A stretch of DNA of 35,979 nt from Bacteroidia bacterium (lineage in GTDB: Bacteria > Bacteroidota > Bacteroidia > 2-12-FULL-35-15): contig DASRRA010000002.1 in assembly GCA_035696085.1 (NCBI GenBank), positions 1-35,979 on the forward strand. Direction: 5' to 3'. Within the stretch, counting starts at the first letter, position 1. Each line of letters opens with the position of its first letter. The position numbers were made by a program, and so were the translations under genes. This document shows positions 9,132 to 34,602 of the stretch, one piece after another. A model generated the notes under the pieces. That model did no database searches. It had not been told where the DNA came from and worked only from the letters and a program-made list of their open reading frames with translations.

Positions 9132-9156
9132 ACAATAGATTATAACACTATAAAAG

Positions 9157-9312: not shown

Positions 9313-9356
9313 ATCCAAGGGGCTATAATAGATCACGAAATTAACGGGTAATAATT

Positions 9357-18908: not shown

Positions 18909-21128
18909 ATGGAAGAAAAGGAGATTTTATTAAAGGTAAAGGTAGATAGGAGTGATTCCGAAAAGGCACTACAGGATGTTACAAAGCAATTAATTGAGAA
19001 TAAGTCCGCATTAGATAGCCTTACTAAGTCTTTTAAAGCAGGTGAGGCTTCTACAGAACAATATGTTAAAGAATCTATTGGCCTTAAAAGAACCCAAAAG
19101 GAATTAGCCGACCAACAAAAGGTACTCACCAAAGAAATACAGGCCGAAGCAAATTCATTAGATGCCTTACGGTTAAAACTTGCATCACTCACAAAAGAGC
19201 GTAACGCTACCAACCAAGGAACCAAGGAAGGGGTAAAGCGTGCAAAAGAACTAACGGAGGCAATAAAGAGTACAAGCGAAGCAATATCAAAACAAGAACA
19301 AGCAGGTGGAGACTTTAGAAGAAACGTAGGGAACTATGGAGATTCATTTAAAGAAGCTGTTGGAGGTGTTAATGTTTTTGGTACTTCATTAGGTGGCTTA
19401 TTTAAAACTCTTGCAGCTAATCCTTTTGCAATAGCCATAGCTGGTATATCGGCATTATTTAATATCCTGAAAGGCTTTGAGCCTGTATTTGATTTTTTCG
19501 AGAGAGGACTTGCAGCGATTATGGCAGGTTTCGATGCATTGGTTTCAGGTAATAATATAGCGAAAGCGGCAAGCGATGCCTATGATCTTGCGCAAGCTGT
19601 TCAGGACTTAGAAGATAACCAAAGGGCTTTAAATGTAGAATCAGCAAAGGCAGAAGCTTCAGTAAAGAATCTAATTATCCAATCAAAAGATAGAACAAAG
19701 ACAGAACAAGACAGATTAGCGATACTTGAGAAAGCCTCACAGATAGAGATTGATAACTTTAATAAGTCATTAAAACTAGCAGAGGAAAATCTAAGAATAG
19801 AAAAAGCAAAGTTAACGGAAGCAGAGAAAAACGGAAGGGCAAATGATGAAATAAGAGATAAGGCAGCAGAAGCAGAGATAAGACTTATTAATCTAAAATC
19901 AAGTTCTGCGGATGTTATTGAGAAAATAGAAAATAGAAAGGCAGCATTGCAAGCAGAGATCCAAAAGGATAAAGATGCAGCAACGCAAAAAGAAATTGAT
20001 GACCTTAAAAAGATTGACGAGGCCAACAAGAAAGCAGCAGAAGAAAGGCAAAAGTTAAGAGAGAAAGAAAAACAAGCAGCACAAGATCTTAGAATATTTA
20101 GATTAGAACAGGATATAAAGGAAACTAAATCTATAGAAGATAAGATACAAAAAGAGATTGAGCTTGAAAAAATTAAAACAGAGTTCTTATTAAAGAACGC
20201 AAAGCTAACAACATCAGAAAGGGCATTACTACAAGAGAAGTTATCCGCTAAAATCATTGAGTTAAATAGTGGAGTTGTTGAAAATGAAAAAGAGTCAAGT
20301 AATGATTTAGAACAATTTAGATTAGATCAGGCCGCAAAAAATGCTGAGGCTATAGATGAACGACTTAAGGCAGAATTAGCAGCGGAAGACTTCAGAGTGG
20401 AGGTTCTTTTGGATAAAGAAAACCTTTTGGCATCAGAGAGAACTTTAATATTAGAACAATCAGAGGCCAAGAAAATAGAGATTGTAAAAAAAGCTGAAGA
20501 GACAAAAAGAAGTGAATCTACTAAAACAGCAAAGATACAAGAAGATAATTTAAAAGTCGGACTACAATCAACATCTACTACACTTGGAACCATAGCAGGG
20601 TTATTCCAAGAAAACACAAAAGCTTATAAAATATTCGCAACAAGTCAGGCATTAGTAGACACTTATAAAAGTGCTAATGCTGCATTTTCTTCTGTGGCTG
20701 GTATTCCTATAGTAGGTCCAGCGCTTGGTATTGCCGCCGCCGGTGCTGCTGTTGCTGCTGGTCTTGCAAATGTGGCTCAGATAAATGCTGCTGCTGGAGG
20801 TGGTGACTTTGTTACAACTAAACCAACTCTATTACTTGTAGGAGATAACCCAGGAGGAAGAGAAAGAATAACTGTAGAGCCTTTAAGTGGTAGAGGTAAA
20901 ACTAAGGTCCATAAAGGAAGCGGAATGATAGCAATGGCAGGAGGTGGAACACTGACCACAGGAGCAACACTCACAAGGGGGTTAAGTACTCCTATTAGTA
21001 ATGATGTATCAAATATGAAATCATTTCAGGATGCACTAATAAACCAGCCAGCACCTGAAGTGAGTGTGAAAGAAATTACAAATAAATCAAACAGAGTGAA
21101 GGTAAAAGAGGGGATAAAGAATTTATGA
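18909..21128 (+). CDS. tail tape measure protein
   Basis: 739 aa. Long K/E/A-rich coiled coil with an internal 73-aa tandem duplication, then a hydrophobic Gly/Ala segment (VAGIPIVGPALGIAAAGAAVAAGLANVAQINAAAGGG). Confidence 0.75.
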   Translation: MEEKEILLKVKVDRSDSEKALQDVTKQLIENKSALDSLTKSFKAGEASTEQYVKESIGLKRTQKELADQQKVLTKEIQAEANSLDALRLKLASLTKERNATNQGTKEGVKRAKELTEAIKSTSEAISKQEQAGGDFRRNVGNYGDSFKEAVGGVNVFGTSLGGLFKTLAANPFAIAIAGISALFNILKGFEPVFDFFERGLAAIMAGFDALVSGNNIAKAASDAYDLAQAVQDLEDNQRALNVESAKAEASVKNLIIQSKDRTKTEQDRLAILEKASQIEIDNFNKSLKLAEENLRIEKAKLTEAEKNGRANDEIRDKAAEAEIRLINLKSSSADVIEKIENRKAALQAEIQKDKDAATQKEIDDLKKIDEANKKAAEERQKLREKEKQAAQDLRIFRLEQDIKETKSIEDKIQKEIELEKIKTEFLLKNAKLTTSERALLQEKLSAKIIELNSGVVENEKESSNDLEQFRLDQAAKNAEAIDERLKAELAAEDFRVEVLLDKENLLASERTLILEQSEAKKIEIVKKAEETKRSESTKTAKIQEDNLKVGLQSTSTTLGTIAGLFQENTKAYKIFATSQALVDTYKSANAAFSSVAGIPIVGPALGIAAAGAAVAAGLANVAQINAAAGGGDFVTTKPTLLLVGDNPGGRERITVEPLSGRGKTKVHKGSGMIAMAGGGTLTTGATLTRGLSTPISNDVSNMKSFQDALINQPAPEVSVKEITNKSNRVKVKEGIKNL
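20085..20522 (+). repeat. in-frame tandem duplication (2 x 219 nt) inside the tape measure gene
   Basis: DLRIFRLEQD...EFLLKNAKLTTSERALLQEKLSAKIIEL aligns with DLEQFRLDQA...EVLLDKENLLASERTLILEQSEAKKIEI. Confidence 0.7.
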
Positions 21129-21394
21129 CGTATCTAGTAGAATTAATAAAAGAGAAACAGCCGGAGATTGATAAGAATGCAGTTGAATATGTTTTAACTT
21201 ATCTTATTAAGGAGGGACACTTGAGTTACACCATTCAATATCATTATGACATTTATAGTTTTTATAAAAAATGTTTAGAGCATTATGAGTCTATGGGGCT
21301 TCAAAGGAAAAGAGTTGTAGCTGATACATGCGAACATTTTAAAATAAAAAAAACTCACTTATATAATATCATTAATAATTTTTCCACAAAGTAG
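21125..21394 (+). CDS. hypothetical protein, possible small HTH DNA-binding protein
   Basis: ATGA coupling to the tape measure gene. The C-terminal RVVADTCEHFKIKKTHLYNIIN looks like a helix-turn-helix. Confidence 0.5.
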   Translation: MTYLVELIKEKQPEIDKNAVEYVLTYLIKEGHLSYTIQYHYDIYSFYKKCLEHYESMGLQRKRVVADTCEHFKIKKTHLYNIINNFSTK

Positions 21395-21468
21395 TGGACT
21401 TGATACAAGCTTAATTCTTTTCTATTCACTTCTTACTATCGTATTTTTATATCAGGTAGTGGGAAGAT

Positions 21469-22554
21469 ATGAGCGAGACACACATTTATGTATACGGGCA
21501 AATTGGACAAGGTGGAATAACTGCCGAGTCTATTAGGAAGAAACTTGCAAACACAAGCGAATCCATTGTTGCGCATATTAATTCCCCAGGCGGAGAGGTC
21601 TACGAAGGTTATACAATCTACAACTTATTAAGGAATTGCGGCAAACCAGTCAATGTAGTCATTGAGGGTTTGTGTGCTTCTATTGCTACGCTCATAGCGT
21701 GTGCAGGTGACAAGATCACAATGAATCCTACAGCCGAGTTTATGATTCACAATCCTATGGTAGGTATTGAGGGCAATGCAGAAGACCTACGCAAAGTAGC
21801 CGACCAATTAGACAACATCAAAAAAACAATCATTGCAGCCTATAAGAGAAAGACTAACAAGTCTGAGGATGAGCTATGGCAAATGATGGACAAAGCAACT
21901 TTTCTTTCTGCTGAACAGGCTAAAGATTTTGGATTTGTGGATGAAGTTTCTCAAGGACTCAAGATGGTTGCCTATGTAGATGTAACAAAATTTAAAACTG
22001 AAAATACAATGGATCAAAAAATTCTTGAATCAATAAATAACCTGGGTAAAAAGATTGAGGGACTATTTAAGTCGGCTCCTAAAAATCTAGATGCCACATT
22101 AGAAGACGGATCTAAAGTCTTCATTGAAACAGAAGATGAAATATTAGAAGGTAAAGCGATTTTCAAAGTAACTGAGCAAGGTAATGCTCCATTAGAAGAC
22201 GGCAGCTATGCGCTTGCTGATGCAAGAATTATAGTAGTGAAAGATGGGAAAGTGGAATCAGTAGCAGAGCCAGCAGCGCAAGACGATTCTGCAAAACAGA
22301 TTGAAGACTTGAAAGCTCAGATAGAACAATTAACAAATCAACTAACTGAAAAAGATGTGTTGATAGAAAACTCTAAAAAAGAATCTGAAGCACTTGCGGT
22401 AACAGTAACAGAGATTAAAAATGAATTTGATAAAGTAAGGAATACTGTAATAGGATCAGACAAAAATCCTAAGAATGTACATATCACACCAAAGGATGAA
22501 AAAGGAAATGATTATGTAAATGGACTTGCAAACTTAATTAACAATAAAAAATAA
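21469..22554 (+). CDS. ClpP-family (S14) prohead protease fused to a coiled-coil scaffold domain
   Basis: INSPGGEVYEG...GLCASIATL...FMIHNP (Ser and His of the ClpP fold). The C-terminal 150 aa are acidic coiled coil (QIEDLKAQIEQLTNQLTEKD). Confidence 0.85.
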   Translation: MSETHIYVYGQIGQGGITAESIRKKLANTSESIVAHINSPGGEVYEGYTIYNLLRNCGKPVNVVIEGLCASIATLIACAGDKITMNPTAEFMIHNPMVGIEGNAEDLRKVADQLDNIKKTIIAAYKRKTNKSEDELWQMMDKATFLSAEQAKDFGFVDEVSQGLKMVAYVDVTKFKTENTMDQKILESINNLGKKIEGLFKSAPKNLDATLEDGSKVFIETEDEILEGKAIFKVTEQGNAPLEDGSYALADARIIVVKDGKVESVAEPAAQDDSAKQIEDLKAQIEQLTNQLTEKDVLIENSKKESEALAVTVTEIKNEFDKVRNTVIGSDKNPKNVHITPKDEKGNDYVNGLANLINNKK

Positions 22555-22560
22555 ACGACG

Positions 22561-23547
22561 ATGGCAAACATACTTGGAACGAGCGGACTGACATACGGAG
22601 GGAAGGAAACAATGGATGTGCTTATTAAGCCATCATTCCAAGACCCAAAGTTGAGTACAATTTTTAGAGTCATGACTGATATTCAGTCAACACAAAAGTT
22701 ATATCTTTTGAATCCTACTTCATATCTAACACAGACGTATAGTTCTTGCGGACTTCCTACAGCTTCAACAGGTGTGAATATTACTCAAAAGGTTTTAACA
22801 ACATCACCACTACAGGTTTACACTAATGAGTGTGCTGATGTTTTCACAAGCACAATATTTGAAACCTGGAAAAAATCAGGTGCAGATATGAATGATCTTT
22901 CCGGAACTGAGGCAGCTAAGATAATCGAAAAGATTACAATGGATGCAGTGGTAAGGGATGCTTATAGGATCGCTTGCTTTGGTAATACTTCTCTATCAGA
23001 TACAAGATACACAATGCTTAACGGTATGTGGAAATTGATATTCGATAACGTAGAGTCTTACTGTATAGATAGAGTAGAGTATCTACCAGATGGTACTTTG
23101 GCAGCAGGTAATGCATTGACTTACTTAACCAACTTATACAATAACTGCGATAATGAATTAGCTGCGGTTCCTGAAGGTGATAAACACTTCCTTGTAACAA
23201 CTCAGCTTTACAATAACCTTATAGCTTCTTACGAATCAGCAGCAGGATATACTGAGTTACAATTTAGAAACCTTACTAATGGACAAAAACTTGTTCAATT
23301 CAGAGGAATCGATGTAGTACCACAAAGAGCTTGGACAACTTATATCAACTCTGACTTCTCTAATTCTAACCCACACAGAATTGTATACACTACAAAAGAT
23401 AACTGGGTACTTGGAGTAGAGAAAGAAAGTGACATGACCACGTTTAGAAACTGGTACTCTATGGATGATGATTTGTATAAAACATTATTGAGATATAGAA
23501 TGGGTGTTCAATTTGTACACTGTGGTTTAACAGCAGTTTCTTACTAA
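22561..23547 (+). CDS. major capsid protein
   Basis: 328 aa, directly after the protease/scaffold gene. Size and position are typical. The fold was not verified. Confidence 0.65.
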   Translation: MANILGTSGLTYGGKETMDVLIKPSFQDPKLSTIFRVMTDIQSTQKLYLLNPTSYLTQTYSSCGLPTASTGVNITQKVLTTSPLQVYTNECADVFTSTIFETWKKSGADMNDLSGTEAAKIIEKITMDAVVRDAYRIACFGNTSLSDTRYTMLNGMWKLIFDNVESYCIDRVEYLPDGTLAAGNALTYLTNLYNNCDNELAAVPEGDKHFLVTTQLYNNLIASYESAAGYTELQFRNLTNGQKLVQFRGIDVVPQRAWTTYINSDFSNSNPHRIVYTTKDNWVLGVEKESDMTTFRNWYSMDDDLYKTLLRYRMGVQFVHCGLTAVSY

Positions 23548-23560
23548 ACGAAATAGATAT

Positions 23561-24106
23561 ATGGCAAATTGTAGGGTAACGAATGAGATAAGCGCAGATT
23601 GCGATGATCTCAGGAGGGTAGGCGGTGTCAATAAAGAATTCTTTTTAGGAAACACAGCAGACTTATCATATACAACAGATGGATCGGGATATGTAAATTC
23701 ATTATCTTTTTCCAGTGTCTACGGAGGTCTTTATAAGTTCGCAGGTAAAAAGAAATCTCACTCAGGCGGTTATACTTTGGTAAAACAAGTCGGTGGTAAT
23801 ACTTTCTTTCAACATGACAACATAGTGAAACTTATAACAACCACACCGGAAGATGATGATGTGATTGAAGAATTAGCGGTGGCAGATGTGTTCACTATCC
23901 TTGAAACCAATAACAGAGAGTTTATAATCTATGGTATTGATAACGGAATGGATATGACAGCAGCCACACAGAACACAGGACAAGAATCAGCAAGCGACAT
24001 TTCTGATACTTTGACTTTCCAAGGTGAAGAAAGAAGTAAGCCACGAAGATTCTTAAGAACTGATTATGATACAACATTGGCATATTTAAATGCTAGAGTA
24101 ATTTAA
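23561..24106 (+). CDS. putative major tail (tube) protein or capsid accessory protein
   Basis: 181 aa, beta-rich, with a tube-like pattern (KEFFLGN...LYKFAGKKKSHSGG...TLTFQGEE). Followed by a strong terminator, which suggests high expression. Confidence 0.45.
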   Translation: MANCRVTNEISADCDDLRRVGGVNKEFFLGNTADLSYTTDGSGYVNSLSFSSVYGGLYKFAGKKKSHSGGYTLVKQVGGNTFFQHDNIVKLITTTPEDDDVIEELAVADVFTILETNNREFIIYGIDNGMDMTAATQNTGQESASDISDTLTFQGEERSKPRRFLRTDYDTTLAYLNARVI

Positions 24107-24137
24107 ACTTTCTCTTTATTTGTTCTTTCATGGGAAA

Positions 24138-24167
24138 GGGTCTCACTAAAAATGAGGCTCTTTTTTT
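24138..24167 (+). terminator. rho-independent terminator
   Basis: 8-bp stem GGGTCTCA/TGAGGCTC (two G.U pairs), 7-nt loop, then T7 at 24161-24167, flanked 5' by AAA. Confidence 0.7.
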
Positions 24168-24193
24168 GTGGATAAATGTGTATAAAATTGTTT

Positions 24194-24222
24194 TACTTTT
24201 GTAAATATATTTATTACATTTG
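24194..24222 (+). promoter_or_regulatory. two TAnnTTTG boxes (TActTTTG 24194-24201, TAcaTTTG 24215-24222) upstream of the glyco-operon
   Basis: Both match the Bacteroidota -7 consensus. They lie between the terminator and the ATG at 24229. Confidence 0.35.
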
Positions 24223-24228
24223 TAAAGG

Positions 24229-24429
24229 ATGATTGAACAAGCAGTCGAGTTAGTTAAGCTGGGAAACCCTACAGGGTGGCCAAAGACTAAGGAAAATAAG
24301 TCAAGGGTTGATGAGATGGGAAGAATACTTTCAAATCTTGCAGGGGTGTATGTAGAGTGTAGTTGGTGTGTAAGGATTGAGATATACAAGCACTTAAGGA
24401 AATGGTTAGAGGGGAATGGTCACCTGTAG
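24229..24429 (+). CDS. hypothetical protein, first gene of the glyco-operon
   Basis: 66 aa. No motif recognised. Confidence 0.5.
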   Translation: MIEQAVELVKLGNPTGWPKTKENKSRVDEMGRILSNLAGVYVECSWCVRIEIYKHLRKWLEGNGHL

Positions 24430-25096
24430 GGTTTTTCAAATTTATTACGATCAGGCAAGTATGGAAGCTTGTTATCCTGAATTTGAAGCTATAGAGAATA
24501 AGGTGTGTTCTCCATTCTTTGAGAACTCAGTTATAATTGATTTGATAAACAAGAAAGAACATATTAACCATGATTACTTTGGAGTCTTTTCAGGACACTT
24601 TAAAAATAAAATGACTCACTCTAGGGATATGAAAAAGTTAACACCTGATTATATCTTAGAAAGATTAGATACTGATGTTGTTTCATTCTTCAGGAACCAT
24701 AAGAATAGTAATGTAATTAATAAGGCAGAGGTGTTCCACCCTGGATTTAAGAGGGCGATATATAATATACTAGAGGCGGTAGGGTTTCAAGTGGACATAG
24801 AGAAAGATACAAGGTTTACAGTCTATCAGAATCATTTTATAACTACCTCACAGATTTACGATAGGTATGTTAAAGAACTTTTAGAGCCAGCTGTTAAGGA
24901 AATGTGTAACAAGGATAACAAGGAGTTACAAAATATCATATGGCAGGATTCAGGGTATCATAAAAAAAAGACCATGCCTGAAAAGTTAAAGCAGGAATTA
25001 GGGGTTAATTATTATCCATACCATACTTTTCTTTGTGAGAGATTGTTTTCAATATTTTTAAATAGATATACAGAAATAACATGCAAACACTTATGA
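24416..25096 (+). CDS. hypothetical protein (possible uncharacterised sugar-transfer/processing enzyme)
   Basis: 226 aa, soluble. The N-terminus FQIYYD...FEN...DYFGVFSGHF is reminiscent of polysaccharide-locus proteins of unknown function. Not verified. Confidence 0.55.
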   Translation: MVTCRVFQIYYDQASMEACYPEFEAIENKVCSPFFENSVIIDLINKKEHINHDYFGVFSGHFKNKMTHSRDMKKLTPDYILERLDTDVVSFFRNHKNSNVINKAEVFHPGFKRAIYNILEAVGFQVDIEKDTRFTVYQNHFITTSQIYDRYVKELLEPAVKEMCNKDNKELQNIIWQDSGYHKKKTMPEKLKQELGVNYYPYHTFLCERLFSIFLNRYTEITCKHL

Positions 25097-25224
25097 AAGA
25101 GGCATTGCTAGTAATTATTAAATGTATACTTATAGCATTTGTATTTGTCGGTTGGTTTGTTCTTGCTGTTATGGCAGGTAAACTTTTATATTATGGTATT
25201 AAATTTTGTTGGAATCTTATATGA
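25093..25224 (+). CDS. small membrane peptide (43 aa, not in ORF track)
   Basis: ATGA overlaps at both ends. Hydrophobic core LLVIIKCILIAFVFVGWFVLAVMAG. Confidence 0.4.
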   Translation: MKEALLVIIKCILIAFVFVGWFVLAVMAGKLLYYGIKFCWNLI

Positions 25225-25868
25225 TAACATTATTACACCCTTCGAGGGGACGGGCAATTAAGGCAAAGGCAACAAGGAATCAATGGCTTGAAAAGGCAAG
25301 CGGAGACCATGAGATAGAGCATATTGTTAGTATAGATTTTGATGATCAGGATAAATTAAATTATGTATTCGCTGAGTCTACAATACTTTGCTTTCATAAT
25401 GAAAGTGTGGTGGATGCTACCAATAGGGCAGCAAAAGAATCTACAGGGGATATTCTAGTTTACTTGTCCGATGATTTTAAGTGCCCGGATAATTGGGATA
25501 AGCTAATAGAGCAGAGGTTAGTAAGAGCCAATAAAACTATAGATGATTTATGGTTAATGAAAGTTGATGACTGTTTACAAAAATATGAAGTACCGGTTCT
25601 TACGATTCCGATTATGTCAAGGGCTTTATATAATAAGCTAGGGTACTTTTGGAATCCTTTATACAAGTCAATGTTTGTAGATGAAGATTTATATTGGGTA
25701 TGTAAAAATAATAATTGGATTATAGATGCTCCTGAATTGAAGTTTCCACATGAGCATCCATGTAATGGCAAGGCAGAGAATGACGAAACATATAAAAGGA
25801 GTTCAGCTAATTGGGAGCAAGGCAAAGAAGTATTTAGAAAACGTAAAATAGCAAACTTCCCTTTATGA
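25221..25868 (+). CDS. GT-A-fold glycosyltransferase
   Basis: First ATG is at 25221 (the ORF track starts at TTG 25206). MITLLHPSRGR, SIDFDDQ and GDILVYLSDDFKCPDNWD (DxD-type). Confidence 0.55.
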   Translation: MITLLHPSRGRAIKAKATRNQWLEKASGDHEIEHIVSIDFDDQDKLNYVFAESTILCFHNESVVDATNRAAKESTGDILVYLSDDFKCPDNWDKLIEQRLVRANKTIDDLWLMKVDDCLQKYEVPVLTIPIMSRALYNKLGYFWNPLYKSMFVDEDLYWVCKNNNWIIDAPELKFPHEHPCNGKAENDETYKRSSANWEQGKEVFRKRKIANFPL

Positions 25869-26434
25869 TTTTATCTATACTTATACCTACTCTTCCAGAT
25901 AGAAAAGATTTCTTAAATGAAATGCTAACTAATATTAATAAGCAGGTAAGCTCATTAAATGCAGGAGATAAAGTAGAGGTGCTAATAGATGACAGAGGGA
26001 GAGAGTTTACAACCGGAACAAAAAGAAATTCTTTACTGGAACAGTCAAAAGGGAAGTATACATGGTTTGTAGATGATGATGATTTCATTTGGGAGTACTC
26101 AATAGCCGAAATATTGAAAGCCTCTGAAACTGATTCTGATGTTATAGGGATTAACGGCTTAATGACTACAGATAATAAGAACCCTGTTCAATGGTACATA
26201 GCTTTAGGATATGAGTATAAAGCCGAAATGCAAAACGGCAAGGAAGTTTATTTAAGATTTCCTAATCACATTACCCCGATGAAAAGGGAGCATGCGATTA
26301 GAGTTAAGTTCCCTAATAAGACAGTCTTTGAAGATTACGAATGGGCAAGTGCTTTAAGGGATGCAGGATATTTAAAAACACAGGTTAAAATAGATAGACC
26401 AATCTATCATTACAGATGCAGGACAAAAAAATAA
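25865..26434 (+). CDS. family 2 glycosyltransferase
   Basis: LSILIPTLPDRKDFL...L.NI..Q, then TKRNSLLEQSKGKYTWFVDDDDF (the classic GT2 N-terminal signature and DxD). Confidence 0.8.
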   Translation: MILSILIPTLPDRKDFLNEMLTNINKQVSSLNAGDKVEVLIDDRGREFTTGTKRNSLLEQSKGKYTWFVDDDDFIWEYSIAEILKASETDSDVIGINGLMTTDNKNPVQWYIALGYEYKAEMQNGKEVYLRFPNHITPMKREHAIRVKFPNKTVFEDYEWASALRDAGYLKTQVKIDRPIYHYRCRTKK

Positions 26435-26682
26435 ATATAGGCAAACTTATTTTAGAAGAGCTAAAAAAGCAAGGGATGTCAAAGTCTGAACTTGCAAGGA
26501 GGTCTTTTATAAGTAAACAAAACCTTAATAATATATTCAAAAGAGAGACTATTAATACAATGCTATTACTTCAAATAGGTACAGCGTTAAACCATAATTT
26601 CTTTAGATACTATAATTCACAATATTTAGAATTAACAAACGAACCATGTACAGCCAAAACCAAGAAGAAGAACACATACTGA
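26416..26682 (+). CDS. XRE-type helix-turn-helix protein
   Basis: IGKLILEELKKQGMSKSELARRSFISKQNLNNIFK. Overlaps both flanking enzyme genes (19 nt and 37 nt). Confidence 0.65.
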   Translation: MQDKKINIGKLILEELKKQGMSKSELARRSFISKQNLNNIFKRETINTMLLLQIGTALNHNFFRYYNSQYLELTNEPCTAKTKKKNTY

Positions 26683-27248
26683 ATTACTTTAAGGATTACA
26701 AAGGAACCCTTTTAGATATTGGAGCCAATGACGGTAAGACTTTTTCTAATTCCCTAAGATTAATAGAATTAGGTTGGAAGGCTTATTTAGTTGAACCATC
26801 TCCTAAAGCGTTTGAGAAACTTTCAAAACTTCATGCTAATAATAAAAGCGTTGAATGTGTTCCGGTGGCTATTGGTGAAGGAAACTCTAAAGCAATCTTA
26901 GCGGAAAGCGGATGGCATTTAAACCACAAATCAGATGTGGCCTTACTTAGTACTCTTATTCCTGAAGAGAAAAAAAGATGGGATAAAGTAGCCTTTGAAG
27001 ATAAAGAGGTTGAAGTAGTGGATTATAAAACCTTTACCGAGCTTGTTGATTGTAAATGCTTTGACTTTATTTCCATTGATGCGGAAGGAATGGATTGGCA
27101 GATACTTTCCCAAATAGATTTATCGGATACTAAGATGTTGTGTATAGAAACAAACTCCGTAGAAACAGAAAAATATATTAACTACTGTATAGGGTTTGGA
27201 ATGAGATTGATTTATAAGAATGCGGAAAATATAATAATGGCTAAATGA
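26646..27248 (+). CDS. FkbM-family methyltransferase
   Basis: GTLLDIGANDGKTFSNS...YLVEPSPKAFEKL...ISIDAEGMD. Confidence 0.75.
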   Translation: MYSQNQEEEHILNYFKDYKGTLLDIGANDGKTFSNSLRLIELGWKAYLVEPSPKAFEKLSKLHANNKSVECVPVAIGEGNSKAILAESGWHLNHKSDVALLSTLIPEEKKRWDKVAFEDKEVEVVDYKTFTELVDCKCFDFISIDAEGMDWQILSQIDLSDTKMLCIETNSVETEKYINYCIGFGMRLIYKNAENIIMAK

Positions 27249-27952
27249 AAAGGACAGTAGTAAGTTTTGCTGATGGTGTAGGTAGTTATGCGAAAGCTCT
27301 AATGAGATTAGAGCAAAGCCTAAAACAAGTAGAGTTTGATGGTAATTTCAAAGGCATAAACGATTATGGACACATAGGAAGTCCATTGCATAAAGGGCAC
27401 CCCAACTGTGTGCCATATGCTTTTAAAGCTTTATCTATAAAGAAAGCGATAGATGAGGGAGCAGAACTTTTGTTATGGTGCGATTCAGTTGTTTATGCAA
27501 CAAAATCATTAAATCACCTATTTACAGAAATTCGCCAGAAAGGGTATATCTTTTTTGATAATGTTGGTTTTTCTATTGGTGATTATACAAGTGATAATTG
27601 TTTGCGTCACTTTGGAATGAGTAGAGAGGAATCATTTAATTCTAAAATGATTATGGCTTGTGTTATGGGATTTGATGTTACTAATCCTCAAACTAAAAAA
27701 TTTTTAGATAAATATATAAGCGCAGCATTAGATGGTATTTCTTACCATGGAGACTGGCATAATAATAACCTACAAGTTTCTCAGGACATGAGGGTGAAGG
27801 GCCACAGACATGATCAATCAGTGGCAAGTGTTTTGATTAAGCAAATGGGTTTAGATATTACACACGCTCAGAGCACTTATTTTGCTTATAGTTCACATAA
27901 AGGCTTAGTGCCTATTTCAGATAAGGTTTGTTTATGGTCGGAGGGAATATGA
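27245..27952 (+). CDS. hypothetical protein, GT-A-like nucleotide-sugar transferase candidate
   Basis: VPYAFKALSIKKAI...ELLLWCDSVVYATKSLNHLF (GT8-like layout with CDS in place of DxD) and KGHRHDQSVASVL. Confidence 0.5.
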   Translation: MKRTVVSFADGVGSYAKALMRLEQSLKQVEFDGNFKGINDYGHIGSPLHKGHPNCVPYAFKALSIKKAIDEGAELLLWCDSVVYATKSLNHLFTEIRQKGYIFFDNVGFSIGDYTSDNCLRHFGMSREESFNSKMIMACVMGFDVTNPQTKKFLDKYISAALDGISYHGDWHNNNLQVSQDMRVKGHRHDQSVASVLIKQMGLDITHAQSTYFAYSSHKGLVPISDKVCLWSEGI

Positions 27953-28221
27953 TTAAACTAGAAGATATTTTCAGGAAGGCTTTAAAAAATAAAAATGCAA
28001 CTGTTTCACCAATGTTTGATGGATTGACATTTTATATTGATGGCGTCTTTTGCGAAATAAAAATACAAAACTCTAGTATTAATTTAAAATATAATCTTAC
28101 ATATTCAATTACAGAAGAAATCTCAACAGAGATAAGAGAAGCATTAATTATTGCATTTGTTAAAAAGAGAGACGAGGAATACGATAAGATTCTAGAGAAA
28201 ATTTTAAATGGTCTACAATGA
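27949..28221 (+). CDS. hypothetical protein
   Basis: GGAGGG precedes the ATG at 27949, which overlaps the upstream TGA. 90 aa. Confidence 0.45.
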   Translation: MIKLEDIFRKALKNKNATVSPMFDGLTFYIDGVFCEIKIQNSSINLKYNLTYSITEEISTEIREALIIAFVKKRDEEYDKILEKILNGLQ

Positions 28222-28807
28222 ATTTAAAAATAAATATATGGGTGTAACTGGGTTTAGTATTAATTTACTTGAAAAGTATAAAGGAGATTCAAAAAGTGTA
28301 TGTGAACTAGGGGCACAAAATCTTTATGATAAAGATTACGGAACTGAGAAGGGACCGTATGCTAATGTGTACTATAATTCAAATGGAATAGAATACACAT
28401 TTATAGATGTTTCTAAAGAAAATAATTCACTAGATATTGATCTTTCAAAACCTCAGACATTCACAGAGGTTTATGACCTTGTTACTGACTTCGGAACTTC
28501 AGAGCATGTTAGTGATAGTTATAATTGTGCCAAGGCAATTCATGATCTAGTTAAGGTTGGTGGAACGGTCATTCAGGAAAACCCAAAGACTGGGAATTGG
28601 CCAGGGCATGGGTTCCATTATAAGACAAAAGCATTCTATGAGAAATTAGCATCATCAAATGGATATGAGATTTTAGAACTTGGAGAACATCCTGCAATGG
28701 GAAATAATACAAACGGTTGGAATGTTTATTGTGTTTGGAAGAAAATAAAAGATAATAATTTTATATCTAAGGCTAGGTTTAAAGAACTTGATTTAAGGAG
28801 TGCATAA
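28208..28807 (+). CDS. class I SAM-dependent methyltransferase-like protein
   Basis: SVCELGAQN (motif I-like) and YDLVTDFGTSEHV...GGTVI. Confidence 0.5.
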   Translation: MVYNEFKNKYMGVTGFSINLLEKYKGDSKSVCELGAQNLYDKDYGTEKGPYANVYYNSNGIEYTFIDVSKENNSLDIDLSKPQTFTEVYDLVTDFGTSEHVSDSYNCAKAIHDLVKVGGTVIQENPKTGNWPGHGFHYKTKAFYEKLASSNGYEILELGEHPAMGNNTNGWNVYCVWKKIKDNNFISKARFKELDLRSA

Positions 28808-28829
28808 GATTACAACATTATAAGTGGAT

Positions 28830-29033
28830 ATGAGAATAAGGATAACAGAAAATATATTTATTACATACGAGGTGTTATCTAAATACATGATTATAAACAA
28901 TGATCCTAGAGTATGGAAGAATGTTTCAGTTTTAAAGGGAACAGAGTTTGATGTAGTTGATAATTGCATAGAGATTGAAGGCAAACATTTTCCACTTAGA
29001 ATGTTTAAATATGAAGTTATCAGCCATATATAA
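28830..29033 (+). CDS. hypothetical small protein
   Basis: 67 aa from the first ATG. Overlaps the next gene by 23 nt. Coding status uncertain. Confidence 0.35.
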   Translation: MRIRITENIFITYEVLSKYMIINNDPRVWKNVSVLKGTEFDVVDNCIEIEGKHFPLRMFKYEVISHI

Positions 29034-29772
29034 TTGTTGGGATAGTGAAGAGTTATTAAAGGGTTCAATAGAGCAAATATATAATTCAGTCGATCTTATT
29101 ATTATTGTTTGGCAGGACGTTTCCAACTTTGGAGAATCTTATAGCCCAATGCCACGAATAATAAAAGATGGTATTGATAAACTTGGTAAGGTAATATTTA
29201 GTAAGTACGTCCCAGCCTTAAATAATGGGTTCAAAAACGAGATCAATAAAAGGCATTTAGGACTCGAGATAGCAAAGAAGAATAGCTGTACACATTTTTT
29301 ACATTTAGATTGTGATGAGTATTATGATACTAACGAATTTGAAAAAGCAAAGAGTTATTTTTTAAACAGTGGGCATAGTGGGTCCGCCTGTAAGATGTGG
29401 ACCTATTTTAAAAATCCTACTTTCAGGCTAGACACTCCTGAAGGTTATCACGTCCCGTTTATTCACAAATTAAAAAGCCACACGAGAGCCGGATATAAAA
29501 CCTATCCTTATTACTGTGATCCTACACGTAGAATAAATGAAACCGATGTTATAGAACTGGATATAATGATGCATCACTTTAGCTGGGTTCGGGAAAACAT
29601 AGATAGGAAGGTTAATAATTCAAGTGCTAAATCTAGTTTATTGAATGGTACTCTTTTAAAAGATTATCATTCCACTATTTTGTGGAACACTCCTGAAGGT
29701 TATTACATAAAAGACTTTGACAAAAGAATTAAATTAGTAGAAAATAAATTCAATGTCAAAATCCCGCTTTAA
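29011..29772 (+). CDS. GT-A-fold (family 2-like) glycosyltransferase
   Basis: First ATG is at 29011. LSAIYNCWDSEELLKGSIEQIYNSVDLIIIVWQDVSNFG and FLHLDCDEYYD (DxD). Confidence 0.5.
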   Translation: MKLSAIYNCWDSEELLKGSIEQIYNSVDLIIIVWQDVSNFGESYSPMPRIIKDGIDKLGKVIFSKYVPALNNGFKNEINKRHLGLEIAKKNSCTHFLHLDCDEYYDTNEFEKAKSYFLNSGHSGSACKMWTYFKNPTFRLDTPEGYHVPFIHKLKSHTRAGYKTYPYYCDPTRRINETDVIELDIMMHHFSWVRENIDRKVNNSSAKSSLLNGTLLKDYHSTILWNTPEGYYIKDFDKRIKLVENKFNVKIPL

Positions 29773-31018
29773 GGTCTTCAATTTATTTAAAGAAAAAGCT
29801 CCTAAAGCTATCCAGGAGAAGGCGGTAGGAATATTGAAGTGGGGTGCAAGAAATAATTTTCCACAGGAAACAATACAAACTATTTACAACAGCCCTACAG
29901 CTTCAGCCTGTATGGACACGTACATTGATTTTCTAGAGGGCGATGGAATTACACAGGAAGAAATAGCCACATTCAAAGTAAATAAATCTCAAACACTTGA
30001 CGAGCTTCATTCTCAAATTTCACCGGATGAGGGATATTTAGAAGGATTTGCCATAGTTGTTAAGTATAATGAGTTTGGCGAGAAGATAGAACTTAAACAC
30101 CTTCCATTAGAATCAGTAAGGCTTGGTATTCCTGATGACTTTGGTTTTATTTCTAAGATTTATTATAATCCTTTTTACGGAACGAATGAATGGAAAGAAA
30201 TTGAAACTATTGTTTATGATACCTACAACCCAAAGAAAGAAGTAGTACTTCAACAGTGGGCAGAGCAAGGATCAAAGTATAACGGGCAAGTTTATTATTG
30301 TGCTACAGAAAAACCTTTAAATAGATTTTATCCACTCCCTTATTATCAAGGGGGCCTTAAGTGGTTTATTATAGATCATAAAATAGGGATGTTTCATGAA
30401 AGAAATATAGATAATAACTTTCTTTTATCAGTTCTTTTTAAAATGGTTGGCGATCCTGATGAAGCGCTTGAGCACGATAAAGAAGGGAATGTTACCAAAA
30501 CAGTTGGACAAGCATTTGACGAGTTCATGCAAAACGGTTTTTCAGGTGCAGAAAATGGTGGAATGTCTATGGCTCTATGGTCTAAGTTAAAAGAGCAAAT
30601 GCCAGAAATACAAGCGTTTCCAAGCTCTACAAATCACGAACTATTTATTGCTCTTCAGCAATTAACAATAGACAATATTTCAATAACTACTAAAGTTCCT
30701 CCAATTCTTGCAAATATTCAGGTAGCAGGTAAACTTGGAAACTCTCAGGAGATTGTCAACTCTGTTAAGTTAATGTATCAGAGAGTAAATAAAAAACAAA
30801 GAAAACTAGAGAGGGCCTATAAAGAACTTTTAACAGGGTTCCTAAATGCTCCTATAGTTAATGAATTAACAATAAGAAATATTAATCCGGTTGATGTTAT
30901 CCCTCCTGAAGTATGGGCTTCATTAACTTTATCAGAACAAAGAAAATTCATTGAGAACAATTACGACATAGAGCTAGAGGAAACGGTAGTGAAGGAGGAA
31001 ACAACTAATGCCTTGTAG
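29753..31018 (+). CDS. putative portal protein
   Basis: 421 aa, a size appropriate for a portal, with an acidic C-terminus. It is the only remaining candidate for a portal in the window. Family not verified. Confidence 0.45.
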   Translation: MSKSRFKVFNLFKEKAPKAIQEKAVGILKWGARNNFPQETIQTIYNSPTASACMDTYIDFLEGDGITQEEIATFKVNKSQTLDELHSQISPDEGYLEGFAIVVKYNEFGEKIELKHLPLESVRLGIPDDFGFISKIYYNPFYGTNEWKEIETIVYDTYNPKKEVVLQQWAEQGSKYNGQVYYCATEKPLNRFYPLPYYQGGLKWFIIDHKIGMFHERNIDNNFLLSVLFKMVGDPDEALEHDKEGNVTKTVGQAFDEFMQNGFSGAENGGMSMALWSKLKEQMPEIQAFPSSTNHELFIALQQLTIDNISITTKVPPILANIQVAGKLGNSQEIVNSVKLMYQRVNKKQRKLERAYKELLTGFLNAPIVNELTIRNINPVDVIPPEVWASLTLSEQRKFIENNYDIELEETVVKEETTNAL

Positions 31019-31592
31019 AACATTATTTATATCACAAGAAGATTTTAAAGAGAGGGTTGATCTTTCAGATAACGTCCTATCAAAATATATTATTCCTAAC
31101 ATAGCAAGTGTTCAGGATAGATATATTAAAAAAATCCTTTGCAAAGATTTCTATGATGAATTAATCTATCAAATAGATAATGATTCTTTAACTACAGAGA
31201 ATGAAACTTTAGTAGATGACTATATTAAACCAGCTATGGTTTTTAGGTCCTACGCTAGATATTTAGCTACTGCAAATGTTTATTCTACTCCTTCAGGGTT
31301 CAGGAAATTCAAAGAAGATAACAGCGATTCAGCAGATGCGGCAGACATGGCAGCCTTTTTAAATCAGGCTAATTCAGATGCAACATTTTATGAGAGAGAA
31401 TTATTTGAGTTCCTAGAAAACAACTTAGATGATTATGCAACTTATAGAGACGAATGCAAATGTTCTAATATTAAATCAATAACAAATTTCAAAATAAGTG
31501 CTATAGGTGCAGGGTATAAAAAAGACCCTTATAAAAATCCTAACAATCCATTTTATAACGACTATTTAGATGATAACGGTAACCCAAGATAG
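31008..31592 (+). CDS. hypothetical virion protein (possible head-tail adaptor)
   Basis: Follows the portal-like gene with an 11-nt overlap. 194 aa. Confidence 0.5.
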   Translation: MPCRTLFISQEDFKERVDLSDNVLSKYIIPNIASVQDRYIKKILCKDFYDELIYQIDNDSLTTENETLVDDYIKPAMVFRSYARYLATANVYSTPSGFRKFKEDNSDSADAADMAAFLNQANSDATFYERELFEFLENNLDDYATYRDECKCSNIKSITNFKISAIGAGYKKDPYKNPNNPFYNDYLDDNGNPR

Positions 31593-32028
31593 CACTAATA
31601 AAATAATGCTTAAGGTTACTACAGCAATTAGTAGCCCATATTTTCTTATAAATTTTACTAACTGTTATACAAACAGGAGTACGGTAGCTTTATTTCAAAA
31701 CAGAAATTCTAATGGTTCATACTATTTAATTTGGATTGTAGAAGTAGGGGAAAATGGGACTGAAGACAAAGTAAATGGACAGTTAAAGTTGGGTCCGTCG
31801 GGAGATTGGCAAGCTGATGTTTATGTTCAGTCAAGCTCAATGAATTTAAATACTAATCAGGCTACATTTATAGAAACTATAGATGTAATAGTTAAATCTT
31901 CAGGATGTGTTTATACTTCAGATGATGATGCTTGTCCTGATATTACAGAAATAGATGGAGGCTCTTTGGCTTTAGGTGATTCACAATTTTCAGTGGTCAA
32001 TGGACTTTTAGACGGATGTAGTTTATAA
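31570..32028 (+). CDS. hypothetical virion protein
   Basis: 152 aa, beta-rich. TAATG coupling to the tail fibre gene. Confidence 0.5.
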   Translation: MITVTQDSTNKIMLKVTTAISSPYFLINFTNCYTNRSTVALFQNRNSNGSYYLIWIVEVGENGTEDKVNGQLKLGPSGDWQADVYVQSSSMNLNTNQATFIETIDVIVKSSGCVYTSDDDACPDITEIDGGSLALGDSQFSVVNGLLDGCSL

Positions 32029-34286
32029 TGGCAAATAGAATAAAATTACGCAGAGGAACAAATGCAGAGGCAACAGCCAACAATCCTATATTAGCATTAG
32101 GAGAAATTGGTATTATAACTGATGCTTCTTCTGATGCTGTTAAATTAAAGATAGGCGATGGAGTTACAGCATGGAACTCATTACCGTATTTTGTTCCAGG
32201 TTCTTCAGGTGGTGGAACCTGGGGAAGTATTACGGGGACCTTATCAAATCAAGTAGACTTACAAAGTGCTTTAGATGCCAAACAAGATGATTTAACTTTT
32301 GATGTAACACCTATATATGGAAGCAGTAACCCAGTAACATCAGATGGAATTTATGATTCTTTAGCGACTAAGCAAGCAACCTTAGTTTCAGGAACTAATA
32401 TAAAAACAGTCGGAGGAACTACATTGTTAGGGTCAGGCGACGTAAATGTACAATCTGAACTTGGGAATATTGTTTATAATGAATTTTTAACAGCAGGCGA
32501 ATTAAGCTCATATACCAATGTAGGTGCTGCTACATTCTCATTTAATGTAGGTGGCGGATTAGATGTATCTAGTGGGAGTTCAACCTTTACAAGCTATTAT
32601 AAACATTCATGGTATACCTTACTTGTTGATTGGGAAATAACAGCAGAATTTATAAATGTTTCCAATGGCAATGGGATTTCTTTTGGTACTCCTGGATTGT
32701 TTGGGTTGATTGATTTAAACACAGCAGGGAACAGAGGACTATTTTATATTTACGGTGGAACAACTCCAACACTATTAGCTACAGCCTCAACAGCTATGAC
32801 GTTTACTAATGGTGATACATTAAGGATGTCACTAAAAAGGGCAGGTACTTATGTGACACTTCAAATTACAAATGTAACAACAAACACTAAATCAAGCCCT
32901 TTAGTATATAATCAAACGTTAGGATTAGTTGCTTCCAATGCACTTCAATCAACTGGTAACCCTGGGATATATGCTTATGGGGGATCTCAAAAGGTAACTA
33001 AATTTGTCTACTCTTCAATAGCTAAAAAACGTCCAGACCTTTTACTAATAGGAGATTCAAATACAGAAGGATGGTGTCAAGCCTATAATACTGTTACGTC
33101 ACTAACAGATGGATCGTTAAATACTACATATGCATATAGATTAATGGCTATGACTAATATGTCTATGGCTAGAATATGCAGACAGGGAGCCGCAACAGCA
33201 GATATTAACACAGCTATTAATGAGGCTTTATTAATCAATCCTAAATATGCAATTATTCATATAGGGACAAATGATGCAATATCATCAAGAACACAAGCAC
33301 AATATTTAGCAGATATGGCTACGCTTATAGCCTCGTTAACTACTGCTGGAATTATACCAATAATATGCAAGGTTATTCCTCATGTTACCGGTGCTGTAAA
33401 TACATTAATTACAAGTTACAATACAGGATTAGCAACAGCGTACGCATCTATATATACAGTAGTAGAAACAAACAGTAATATAAATGTTACTGATGATACT
33501 ACAGGAGTTCATTTAAATATGAAGGGTGCAGCTAAAATGGCATGGCTAGTAGCAGATGCACTTAGTAATATGGGTGCTGCTCCTGAAACAGATGTAAGTT
33601 TTGAAAGATACCTTTTAAACTTTCAAACTCCTTCCGCAGCGAAAAGAGTGCAAATGCATTTATATCCTTTAAATTCAGTTGGTGCATCTAAGGGGCCAAT
33701 GGTGGCAGGAAGATTAAATAATACTACTTCAGGTAGTGAGATTTCTGTACTTGAATTTTGGGGACATATTTCAAGCACTACTCAAGCAATGATGGCTAAT
33801 CTTTGGGGTGCAAGATTTGGTATAGGTACATCAGTAGGAGTACAACCGGTTGCATATCTTCATGCGAGAGCTGTAACATTAGGAGAAGAAGTATATAGAT
33901 ATGAAACCACCGCGACCAATGATGATCCTTATGTTGAAATGGTTCAAGGTAGAATCGCTACTACTGATGCAACTGTTACAACAGCAAGACAAGTAATATT
34001 AACAGCTTCAAAAACTCTTTATGCGACCGCTTTAGTAATTGCAAGAAGAACAGCAGGTTCAGCAGGTGCTACAGATGACACGGCTGTATATGAATTAAAG
34101 GCAGTTTGTAAGGGGACGGCTACTTTATCTGTAAATACTACCACAGTAGTGTATGAAGATCAAGCAGGCTGGGATTGTGTTTTTGATATTTCAGGAGGAG
34201 CTTTAAGGATTAGAGTAACAGGGGCAGTAAATAATACTATTACATGGCACGTATCAGAATTTAAATATTCATCAATAGGAACATAA
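32028..34286 (+). CDS. tail fibre/spike with an SGNH (GDSL) esterase domain
   Basis: N-terminus KLRRGT...NPILALGEIGIITD...KIGDGVTAWNSLPYF (conserved phage fibre anchor, Mtd_N-like). SGNH blocks: LLLIGDSNTEG (33051-59 = GDS), HIGTNDA, DDTTGVH. Confidence 0.8.
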   Translation: MANRIKLRRGTNAEATANNPILALGEIGIITDASSDAVKLKIGDGVTAWNSLPYFVPGSSGGGTWGSITGTLSNQVDLQSALDAKQDDLTFDVTPIYGSSNPVTSDGIYDSLATKQATLVSGTNIKTVGGTTLLGSGDVNVQSELGNIVYNEFLTAGELSSYTNVGAATFSFNVGGGLDVSSGSSTFTSYYKHSWYTLLVDWEITAEFINVSNGNGISFGTPGLFGLIDLNTAGNRGLFYIYGGTTPTLLATASTAMTFTNGDTLRMSLKRAGTYVTLQITNVTTNTKSSPLVYNQTLGLVASNALQSTGNPGIYAYGGSQKVTKFVYSSIAKKRPDLLLIGDSNTEGWCQAYNTVTSLTDGSLNTTYAYRLMAMTNMSMARICRQGAATADINTAINEALLINPKYAIIHIGTNDAISSRTQAQYLADMATLIASLTTAGIIPIICKVIPHVTGAVNTLITSYNTGLATAYASIYTVVETNSNINVTDDTTGVHLNMKGAAKMAWLVADALSNMGAAPETDVSFERYLLNFQTPSAAKRVQMHLYPLNSVGASKGPMVAGRLNNTTSGSEISVLEFWGHISSTTQAMMANLWGARFGIGTSVGVQPVAYLHARAVTLGEEVYRYETTATNDDPYVEMVQGRIATTDATVTTARQVILTASKTLYATALVIARRTAGSAGATDDTAVYELKAVCKGTATLSVNTTTVVYEDQAGWDCVFDISGGALRIRVTGAVNNTITWHVSEFKYSSIGT

Positions 34287-34411: not shown

Positions 34412-34602
34412 TGTCACAGATAAACCACTCTGATTTAGAAAATGCAAGCGAAAGCGGAATAATAGGAATAATGGTTTCTTTCCTTATAAGAGAAGTTATG
34501 CCTTGGGCTATTCATACAGTAGGAGCTTTATTTACAGCTGGGATAGTTGCGGTTGCTTTATTTTTTTTCAATAGGTGGTTAGGTAAAACTTTTAAGAAAT
34601 GA
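34411..34602 (+). CDS. putative holin
   Basis: 63 aa with two hydrophobic helices and a basic C-terminus (GKTFKK). Lies immediately upstream of the endolysin and overlaps it. Confidence 0.55.
   Translation: MSQINHSDLENASESGIIGIMVSFLIREVMPWAIHTVGALFTAGIVAVALFFFNRWLGKTFKK

Follow-up and report, generated by a model that had tools for sequence, protein, structure and literature searches.

Why would a tailed phage carry, between its capsid and portal genes, a dozen tightly packed genes that include several glycosyltransferases (GTs) and methyltransferases? This question is raised by the window analyzed here, a stretch of 35,979 nucleotides (nt; positions 1 to 35,979 of contig DASRRA010000002.1) from the Bacteroidia assembly GCA_035696085.1, in which such a unit occupies positions 24229 to 29772. 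The initial annotation, made from the sequence alone, proposed that the unit encodes a multistep pathway building a methylated oligosaccharide on virion proteins, and it regarded a cassette of this kind as unusual. Comparison with related loci corrects the latter view and identifies the cassette as one allele of a common, hypervariable, virus-specific glycan island in the head-gene region, the core of which recurs elsewhere in the genomes of other phage backbones. Virion glycosylation is the reading that we favor, at somewhat less than even chances. The unit and its flanks contain the following features (the first number in brackets after a family name without units is an expect value; aa, amino acids; ORF, open reading frame; SAM, S-adenosylmethionine; HTH, helix-turn-helix).

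22561..23547, + strand: major-capsid-like protein, 328 aa, directly after the head maturation protease gene (phrog_38780, 5e-13; phrog_1623, "virion structural protein")
23561..24106, + strand: p181, conserved 181-aa virion-module protein, putatively "tube-like"; final gene upstream of the terminator
24125..24175, + strand: intrinsic-terminator-like hairpin plus T-run (free energy -17.3 kcal/mol, z -4.7, this stability reached by none of 200 shuffles)
24194..24222, + strand: two TAnnTTTG boxes, the Bacteroidota -7-type promoter motif, starting at 24194 and 24215 (motif count)
24229..24429, + strand: o66, 66 aa, restricted to this phage lineage (47-64% identity in relatives L001, L002, and L005; no family match)
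24416..25096, + strand: A, 226 aa, proposed divergent GT-A-like enzyme, anchor gene of the island (model, fusions, synteny)
25081..25224, + strand: o47, conserved 47-aa single-pass membrane microprotein (maximum 19-residue hydropathy 2.83)
25221..25868, + strand: B, probable GT2-like glycosyltransferase with SDD motif (phrog_14945, "glycosyltransferase," 6e-15)
25865..26434, + strand: C, GT2 glycosyltransferase with DDDD motif (Pfam GT2, 25.3 bits, above the cut-off; phrog_14775, 2e-29)
26416..26682, + strand: XRE/Cro-type HTH ORF, 88 aa, window-specific insertion (Pfam HTH_26, 24.3 bits against a cut-off of 22)
26646..27248, + strand: D, FkbM-family SAM methyltransferase (Pfam Methyltransf_21, 4e-13; TIGR01444, 5e-13)
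27245..27952, + strand: E, predicted GT-A fold, retaining-type glycosyltransferase (predicted structure, PDB fold matches)
27949..28221, + strand: o97, small window-specific ORF, 97 aa (ATG at 27949, alternative TTG at 27928; no family match)
28208..28807, + strand: F, probable class I SAM methyltransferase-like protein (Pfam Methyltransf_23, 6e-6, 26.5 bits against a cut-off of 27)
28824..29033, + strand: o69, GTG-start ORF, 69 aa, window specific, of doubtful coding status (no homologue or family match)
29011..29772, + strand: G, conserved island protein, 253 aa, whose DCDE motif pattern resembles that of GT-A enzymes (motif only)
29753..31018, + strand: portal (phrog_11226, 1.7e-54)

All 12 ORFs of the unit are present, as are the strong terminator after the capsid and tube-like genes and the two promoter boxes that had been taken to open it. 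A simple terminator scan did not flag the hairpin; hairpins with a T-run and a differing stem sequence stand at the same site 3' of the p181 gene in five relatives (L001, L002, L005, L028, and L031). The + strand of the window has only 10 TAnnTTTG boxes and the - strand 28 (38 in total, where chance would give about 49 for the two strands), and 4 of the 10 on the + strand (2466, 18859, 24194, and 24215) lie in untranslated gaps before the genes at 2494, 18909, and 24229. These boxes point to three promoters of the host type and to a host within the Bacteroidota. The junctions had been described as ATGA overlaps or overlaps of 4 to 37 nt throughout, which holds for all but one of them: ATGA overlaps of 4 nt occur at o47/B, B/C, D/E, and E/o97, and the others measure 14 to 37 nt, the sole exception being o69, whose GTG start at 28824 follows a gap of 16 nt. 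At its far end the unit runs on into the portal gene, the start of which is overlapped by the 3' end of G by 20 nt.

The initial annotation had suggested a search for the cassette at the exact junction in related genomes. A portal profile scan yielded 55 loci of the lineage to which the window belongs, and 36 of these hold both p181 and portal. The capsid-like gene is syntenic across the 36 loci, and p181 is better conserved across the lineage than the capsid protein. Gene A lies immediately 3' of p181 in 32 of them, and at least one recognized island gene is present in 33, so that the window and 33 of the 36 loci share the order protease, capsid, p181, island, portal. The content of the island is anything but constant, the distance between p181 and portal ranging from 0.8 to 8.6 kb. 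The smallest islands consist of A alone (L070 to L072; 946-974 bp from p181 to portal), and in L094 the only recognized island gene at the junction is G. Other loci contain A plus GT2_4, the series A-B-C-(TylF/F)-D-E-G, or one of several arrangements of B to G, and an alternative gene set reads A-GT11-GT2-NAD epimerase/dehydratase-MT24-GT25-MT24/TylF-FkbM-GT2_4. Such turnover of content at a fixed site is what one would expect for a surface glycan subject to diversifying selection.

In L092 (4159-9745), a sister island at this junction encodes GT11 (the family of fucosyltransferases), GT2, an NAD epimerase resembling GDP-mannose dehydratase, GT25, FkbM, GT2_4, and two MT24/TylF-type methyltransferases. 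It differs from the island of the window in having a gene for a sugar-nucleotide enzyme, and its genes suggest a methylated 6-deoxyhexose glycan. The few lineage members without A at the junction include L121, which has a gene for a TIG/Ig-domain protein there instead (8675-9493), and L075, L085, and L087, with gaps of 2.8 to 3.3 kb; the gap of L075 holds an unannotated minus-strand gene of 489 aa (7713-9182).

The island genes are also found outside this lineage. The seven-gene core A-B-C-D-E-F-G is colinear in the close relatives L002 and L005 (52-79% identity), and the same core is colinear in an unrelated, myovirus-like backbone (L008 to L011), where it lies between tail sheath and GpA-type terminase genes. 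A profile scan of IMG/VR with E returned 50 loci. B counts as a core gene in 46 loci and D in 50; where flanks are present, C and D almost always accompany E, and B usually does. G likewise co-occurs with E. Two gene orders recur in these loci, (A or X229)-B-C-D-E-F-G and GT-GT-B-D-(TylF/F)-C-E, on three recurrent backbones, and the B-C-D-E core occupies fixed sites in two phage backbones besides that of the window.

E is the most conserved island gene, and its family comprises more than 508 clusters, many at about 70% identity. It had no match in 50,697 isolate phages (tblastn), and it occurs in 3 of 185,579 bacterial species genomes, in all three cases on phage-sized contigs of metagenome-assembled genomes; some E-bearing backbones are binned with different phyla. 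The window E is 68-78% identical to the myovirus-type E versus 52-55% to the E of its nearest relatives, from which every other island and structural gene of the window differs least, and this points to a single-gene replacement of E inside the island. The identity of A to its window counterpart tracks that of capsid and portal. These comparisons indicate that A was inherited with the structural module, whereas E was acquired by exchange with a backbone of the myovirus type that is unrelated to that of the window.

The small ORFs found only in the window (HTH, 26416-26682; 97 aa, 27928-28221; 69 aa, 28824-29033) are close to the replaced E, and none of the three had a homologue in the relatives compared; in L002 and L005 the HTH ORF is missing and C abuts D. 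The junction between E and F repeatedly holds unrelated small inserts, such as an HNH-like small ORF in L008 (13743-14021). Homologues of a 161-aa protein of the early region of the window (7664-8149; no Pfam match) are inserted in the glycan islands of other phages (cluster c42): in L017 (9604-10008) between D and E, and in L019 adjoining the terminase gene. This protein may be encoded by a small mobile gene.

What do the island genes encode? Five of the ORFs had been listed as lacking a recognizable motif, and for two of them this description is superseded: the 226-aa A is the conserved anchor gene of the island and probably GT-A-like, and the 47-aa o47 is a conserved membrane protein. The AlphaFold model of A (predicted local distance difference test [pLDDT], 90.8) gave only weak matches in the PDB, nearly all of them glycosyltransferases and mostly of family GT6 (template modeling [TM] score 0.45-0.52). 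In BFVD it matches uncharacterized proteins of uncultured phages and one giant virus with TM scores of 0.76 to 0.82; the annotated matches there are weak and are mostly GT-A-type viral proteins. A profile search with A retrieved 1610 family representatives, and the invariant residues are E36/N37, H203, E208, and R209. The A domain also forms the C-terminal part of multidomain proteins, following GT2 and Methyltransf_11/23 domains in P0381 and a GT4 domain (also matching Pfam "GT4-conflict") in P0416. Because of its probable GT-A-like fold and its fusions to GT2 plus methyltransferase and to GT4, A is taken to be a glycan-pathway enzyme, not a structural protein, and we propose from the model, with its weak PDB matches, that it is a divergent GT-A-like enzyme.

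The assignment of E as GT-A-like is borne out by its predicted structure (pLDDT 93.1). E has no family match, and its model has 229 PDB matches at expect values of 1e-3 or lower, the top 50 being GT-A enzymes without exception. Matches include LARGE1, XXYLT1, LgtC, WbbM, glycogenin, GT6 enzymes, and A64R of chlorovirus PBCV-1 (domain 1, 2p72; TM 0.57/0.65, expect value 2e-5), and the model resembles all retaining GT-A families about equally well. Modeling thus identifies E as a GT-A fold, retaining-type glycosyltransferase. Its metal dependence is uncertain because the DXD position reads CDS (W78-C79-D80-S81, nearly invariant).

Three further proteins had been called GT-A glycosyltransferases. 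The call is upheld for C, which, like the FkbM methyltransferase D, exceeds its Pfam cut-off, and sequence profiles accordingly class C as a GT2 enzyme and D as an FkbM methyltransferase; PDB matches of the C profile include GalT1 (5hea, 1.5e-7), 5tze/5tz8 ("Glycosyl transferase"), and a PglI-like undecaprenol-PP glucosyltransferase. B is a probable glycosyltransferase by its PHROG match, its Pfam GT2 score of 20.9 bits lying under the cut-off of 23.3. For G, no profile or PDB match supports the call. Its motif pattern consists of an N-terminal strand, VDLIIIVWQD, and LDCDEYY; no Pfam link was found for six members scanned, no PDB link by sequence or profile, and hhalign comparisons with the families of C, B, GT2_4, X229, E, A, and D were all negative. 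The G family numbers at least 603 clusters, and none of 120 listed relatives has a Pfam domain. F had been described as a class I methyltransferase-like protein, and this is probable, its score falling just under the Pfam cut-off; many other islands have a TylF-like methyltransferase in its place. The XRE-type HTH call for the 88-aa ORF is supported above the cut-off. Sequence searches of the PDB gave no match for A, E, and G and nothing useful for D and F.

In Pfam and NCBIfam scans of ten island ORFs, plus o47 and o69, complemented by a hydropathy scan, we found no exporter, Wzx/Wzy, initiating phosphoglycosyltransferase, polytopic membrane enzyme, or sugar-nucleotide gene in the island of the window. 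This agrees with the initial annotation, which had concluded from the same absences that the unit is not a capsule or O-antigen locus; none of the twelve ORFs matched an initiating phosphoglycosyltransferase, Wzx/Wzy, or ABC transporter. It had also considered the enzymes soluble, and the only hydrophobic segment among the island products is that of o47. Positional homologues of o47 in L001, L002, and L005 share the C-terminal motif YY..(F/Y)CWNLI, even with differing downstream cargo, and o47 could possibly be a membrane tether. PADLOC returned no match for the island enzymes (the HTH ORF matched a candidate HTH model, and E matched weakly, with an expect value of 0.002); membership of the island in a defense system was dropped because the enzymes had no match.

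The island is embedded in a phage genome of about 34% GC in which all long ORFs are on the + strand. Backbone genes, most of them called by PHROG matches, include, besides those listed above, the following.

3584-5269, + strand: primase/helicase (PHROG match)
10615-11793, + strand: large terminase (PHROG match)
18909-21128, + strand: tape measure (PHROG match)
21469-22554, + strand: head maturation protease (PHROG match)
32028-34286, + strand: tail-fibre-like protein (PHROG match)
34599-35033: CHAP lysin

PHROG matches of p181 are all of unknown function, and it has no Pfam match. The order of the morphogenesis genes is unusual (terminase, large tail genes, tape measure, protease, capsid, p181, island, portal), and the portal gene starts about 18 kb downstream of the end of the terminase gene (window 10615-31018). 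Distant relatives of the portal belong to phages of Bacteroides, Parabacteroides, Phocaeicola, and Cellulophaga; megablast of positions 21000-33000 against isolate phages found no near-identical DNA, and tblastn with the capsid protein against isolate phages found no match. No integrase, lysogeny module, DNA polymerase, or thymidylate-synthase-like, TET-like, or C5-methyltransferase gene was recognized among the scanned ORFs of the window. Because its ends lack a terminal direct repeat (1-80 and 35900-35979 compared) and close relatives assemble at 43.2 to 43.8 kb, the window may lack about 7 kb, and genes unseen in it are therefore not proven missing from the phage.

Virion glycosylation genes inside the structural module are already known from actinophages. 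Among isolate phages, C matched only glycosyltransferases of Mycobacterium, Gordonia, and Actinoplanes phages (31-36% identity among the matches listed). In a pairwise test against a database of 12 proteins, it matched, over its full length and with 31-36% identity, LittleE gp15 (1.8e-23) and the N-terminal half of Avani gp105 (4e-22), and all other pairs had expect values of at least 0.006. A BLAST hint of similarity between E and the C-terminal half of Avani gp105 (0.006) was discarded, the hhalign comparison being negative, as was a similarity of B to LittleE gp18, which was not significant. In LittleE the glycosyltransferases, gp15 first, are placed between the capsid and head-tail connector genes, and Avani gp105 is part of a set of three glycosyltransferases, which we take to correspond to the Che8 set. 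In Corndog an O-methyltransferase and three glycosyltransferases lie between portal and protease (PMC4351075), and the enzymes of cluster O reportedly add sugars to subunits of the capsid and the tail tube (Freeman 2023, as cited in PMC11600133 and PMC12619734). In the literature found, demonstrated virion glycosylation of phages is confined to a few mycobacteriophages, where it alters antibody recognition.

The actinobacteriophage sets (cluster O, Corndog gp35-38; cluster F, Che8/Avani; cluster J, LittleE gp15-21) thus resemble the island in having soluble glycosyltransferases inside or beside head genes, in lacking exporter and lipid-carrier enzymes, in the O-methyltransferase of Corndog, and in the homology of C. 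They differ in their hosts (Actinobacteria versus the Bacteroidota type here), in their capsid proteins, and in their methyltransferases, which belong to other families; only one of the seven core proteins is recognizably homologous, and A, E, and G have no counterpart there. The island, unlike these sets, is hypervariable across its lineage, and its core moves between backbones; glycosylation has been shown experimentally for the actinophages and is proposed for the system described here. In the literature on phage FkbM, TylF, and glycosyltransferase cassettes, we found no description of this cassette. What appears to be new is the host group, the virus-only families A, E, and G, the lineage-wide hypervariability at a fixed junction, and the exchange of the core between unrelated phages.

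A second parallel is chlorovirus PBCV-1, the major capsid protein of which receives a methylated oligosaccharide from virus-encoded GT-A enzymes and sugar O-methyltransferases; these work in the cytoplasm and need neither the host endoplasmic reticulum/Golgi apparatus nor lipid carriers. The match of the E model to domain 1 of A64R and the GT2-methyltransferase-A fusion P0381, which recalls the GT-GT-methyltransferase design of A064R, a protein that acts beside other viral glycosyltransferases, are the points of likeness; PBCV-1 is a eukaryotic giant virus, and its similarity to E is at the level of the fold only. Bacterial O-antigen loci and flagellin glycosylation islands share with the present islands the hypervariable content at a fixed chromosomal site and a repertoire of GT2, GT11, GT25, FkbM, TylF, and NAD-dependent sugar-nucleotide epimerase/dehydratase genes, FkbM genes having been reported in flagellin glycosylation islands (PMC4875605). 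In contrast to these loci, the island is viral and embedded in virion genes, it has no Wzx/Wzy, ABC transporter, or initiating phosphoglycosyltransferase, and its anchor enzyme A belongs to a virus-only family.

How, then, would the unit act? In the reading that we favor, although its probability stays a little below one half, its product is an O-methylated oligosaccharide carried by abundant proteins of the virion, the capsid protein and p181 being the candidate acceptors. The island would be transcribed from its own Bacteroidota-type promoter, which lies behind the terminator of the capsid/p181 unit, and transcription would continue into portal, so that the island is expressed together with virion genes. 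A, inherited with the structural module, would be the initiating transferase, with the capsid protein and/or p181 receiving the first sugar; B, C, and E, perhaps together with G, would extend it to a short oligosaccharide from host nucleotide sugars, and D and F would serve as sugar O-methyltransferases. The layout of the unit, the enzyme classes of C, D, and E, the fusions of the A domain, and the fixed site with its changing content are observed; the function of the island, its acceptor, the sequence of reactions, the choice of sugars, and late expression are inferred. The hypothesis of the initial annotation has gained circumstantial support: the capsid-side position fixed across deep divergence, the turnover of content, the descent of A, a likely glycan enzyme, with the backbone, the virus-only families, the homology of C to glycosyltransferases of cluster F and J mycobacteriophages and other actinophages, the likeness of the E fold to that of the capsid-glycosylating A64R, and the transcription signals (conserved terminator, promoter boxes, and overlap with portal).

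Several observations weigh against virion proteins as the acceptor. When the capsid and p181 sequences of relatives with an island were aligned with those of relatives lacking A, neither a Ser/Thr-rich tail nor a segment correlated with the island emerged. Adjacency to the capsid gene is not universal, since the B-C-D-E core lies beside terminase or primase/helicase genes in other backbones, and it could reflect module boundaries that tolerate cargo. The best PDB match of A has an expect value of 4e-3, G has no family class, and homology to actinophages is limited to C, the methyltransferase of Corndog and the other actinophage glycosyltransferases showing no significant similarity to island proteins. 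The GT25, GT11, FkbM, and TylF genes of the sister islands are equally typical of lipopolysaccharide (LPS) and O-antigen pathways, and the conserved o47 hints at action at the membrane.

These last two points lead to the alternative that the enzymes edit glycans of the host envelope. Soluble or peripheral glycosyltransferases and methyltransferases would then modify glycans of the host that are lipid linked or still being made (LPS core, O-antigen, capsule, or other) from the cytoplasmic side of the membrane, and the altered surface of the infected cell would block superinfection or keep progeny from being trapped on debris. GT2, FkbM, and TylF, together with GT25, GT11, and the GDP-mannose-dehydratase-like enzyme of the sister island, are families of LPS, O-antigen, and teichoic-acid pathways; the PglI-like enzyme among the PDB matches of C and the single-pass o47 inside the island fit such a role, and the allelic diversity of the island would also suit diverse host glycans. 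Temperate phages do modify host glycans by seroconversion (gtrABC, with the flippase GtrA, the bactoprenol glycosyltransferase GtrB, and a polytopic serotype-specific transferase; Oac; and prophage TarP, a soluble GT2 enzyme; the C profile weakly matches 6h1j, presumably TarP, with an expect value of 0.004). Those systems are borne by prophages beside integration modules and use flippases, polytopic transferases, or a single enzyme, whereas here no lysogeny genes were recognized among the scanned ORFs, the island encodes no Gtr-type flippase, polytopic transferase, Wzx/Wzy, or phosphoglycosyltransferase, and four to five transferases stand with two methyltransferases. The near absence of E from bacterial genomes implies that it is not carried on prophages, its 68-78% identity across unrelated backbones, some binned with different phyla, is hard to square with host-specific acceptors, and A is inherited with the structural module even as the sole island gene. 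On this balance, we consider editing of host glycans unlikely, though it is the rival to be taken most seriously.

A further possibility is that the acceptor is neither virion nor envelope and that the product is a free or lipid-bound methylated oligosaccharide, or a modified host protein or nonvirion phage protein, serving takeover or counterdefense. The differing position of the cassette between backbones would accommodate this, as would the "GT4-conflict" match of the GT4 fusion partner of the A domain. Against it stands the lack of PADLOC matches for the enzymes and of any carrier or export gene, and exposed surfaces are the more usual setting for a multistep methylated glycan that varies between alleles; we regard such an acceptor as decidedly improbable. 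Least probable by far, though also listed as an alternative in the initial annotation, is sugar hypermodification of phage DNA, in which glycosyltransferases would act on a hydroxymethylated base with a contribution of the methyltransferases, as in MT/5mYOX/GT or ThyS/GT clusters. Phage GT-A enzymes, sometimes several together, occur in such clusters (the T4 alpha/beta-glucosyltransferases; MT/5mYOX/GT of Pyle et al.), and some that glycosylate 5-hydroxymethylcytosine (5hmC) are encoded near structural or terminase genes (10.1101/2023.12.21.572611); in some backbones the present cassette lies beside primase/helicase or terminase genes, and part of the genome may be missing from the window. What defines such clusters is a linked enzyme generating 5hmC or 5-hydroxymethyluracil. 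Neither a thymidylate-synthase-like hydroxymethylase nor a TET/JBP dioxygenase nor a C5-cytosine methyltransferase appeared among the scanned window ORFs or in precomputed Pfam calls within 10 kb in L002 to L013. No DNA polymerase was recognized among the scanned ORFs either, which makes a prereplicative route through modified nucleotides unlikely. D and F are of the FkbM and Methyltransf_23 types, not of DNA methyltransferase families, and four to six transferases with two O-methyltransferases exceed the described mono- to trisaccharide DNA pathways.

If virion glycosylation is the function of the island, it would extend from actinophages to Bacteroidota-type and other uncultured phages and would involve A, E, and G, families that are nearly confined to viruses and comprise hundreds to more than 1000 sequence clusters each. 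The island would behave as serotype loci do, exchanging gene sets at a constant site. In its general form, this idea holds that many uncultured tailed phages have an O-antigen-like, hypervariable "virion serotype" locus in which A, as a virus-only initiating transferase, is fixed by the capsid genes and interchangeable B-C-D-E modules, in some cases joined by F/TylF and G, pass from one unrelated backbone to another, coating capsids and/or tails with diverse O-methylated oligosaccharides. Virion glycosylation would in that case be widespread and diversifying among phages and no peculiarity of actinophages; we offer this idea tentatively, as possible and on the whole doubtful. The arrangement p181, A, variable genes, portal provides a genomic marker for such loci, with A as a candidate protein-priming transferase. 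Glycosyltransferase and methyltransferase genes recorded as "auxiliary metabolic" genes in viromes would then need another interpretation, and the surfaces of phage particles, their stability, adsorption, and recognition would have to be rethought.

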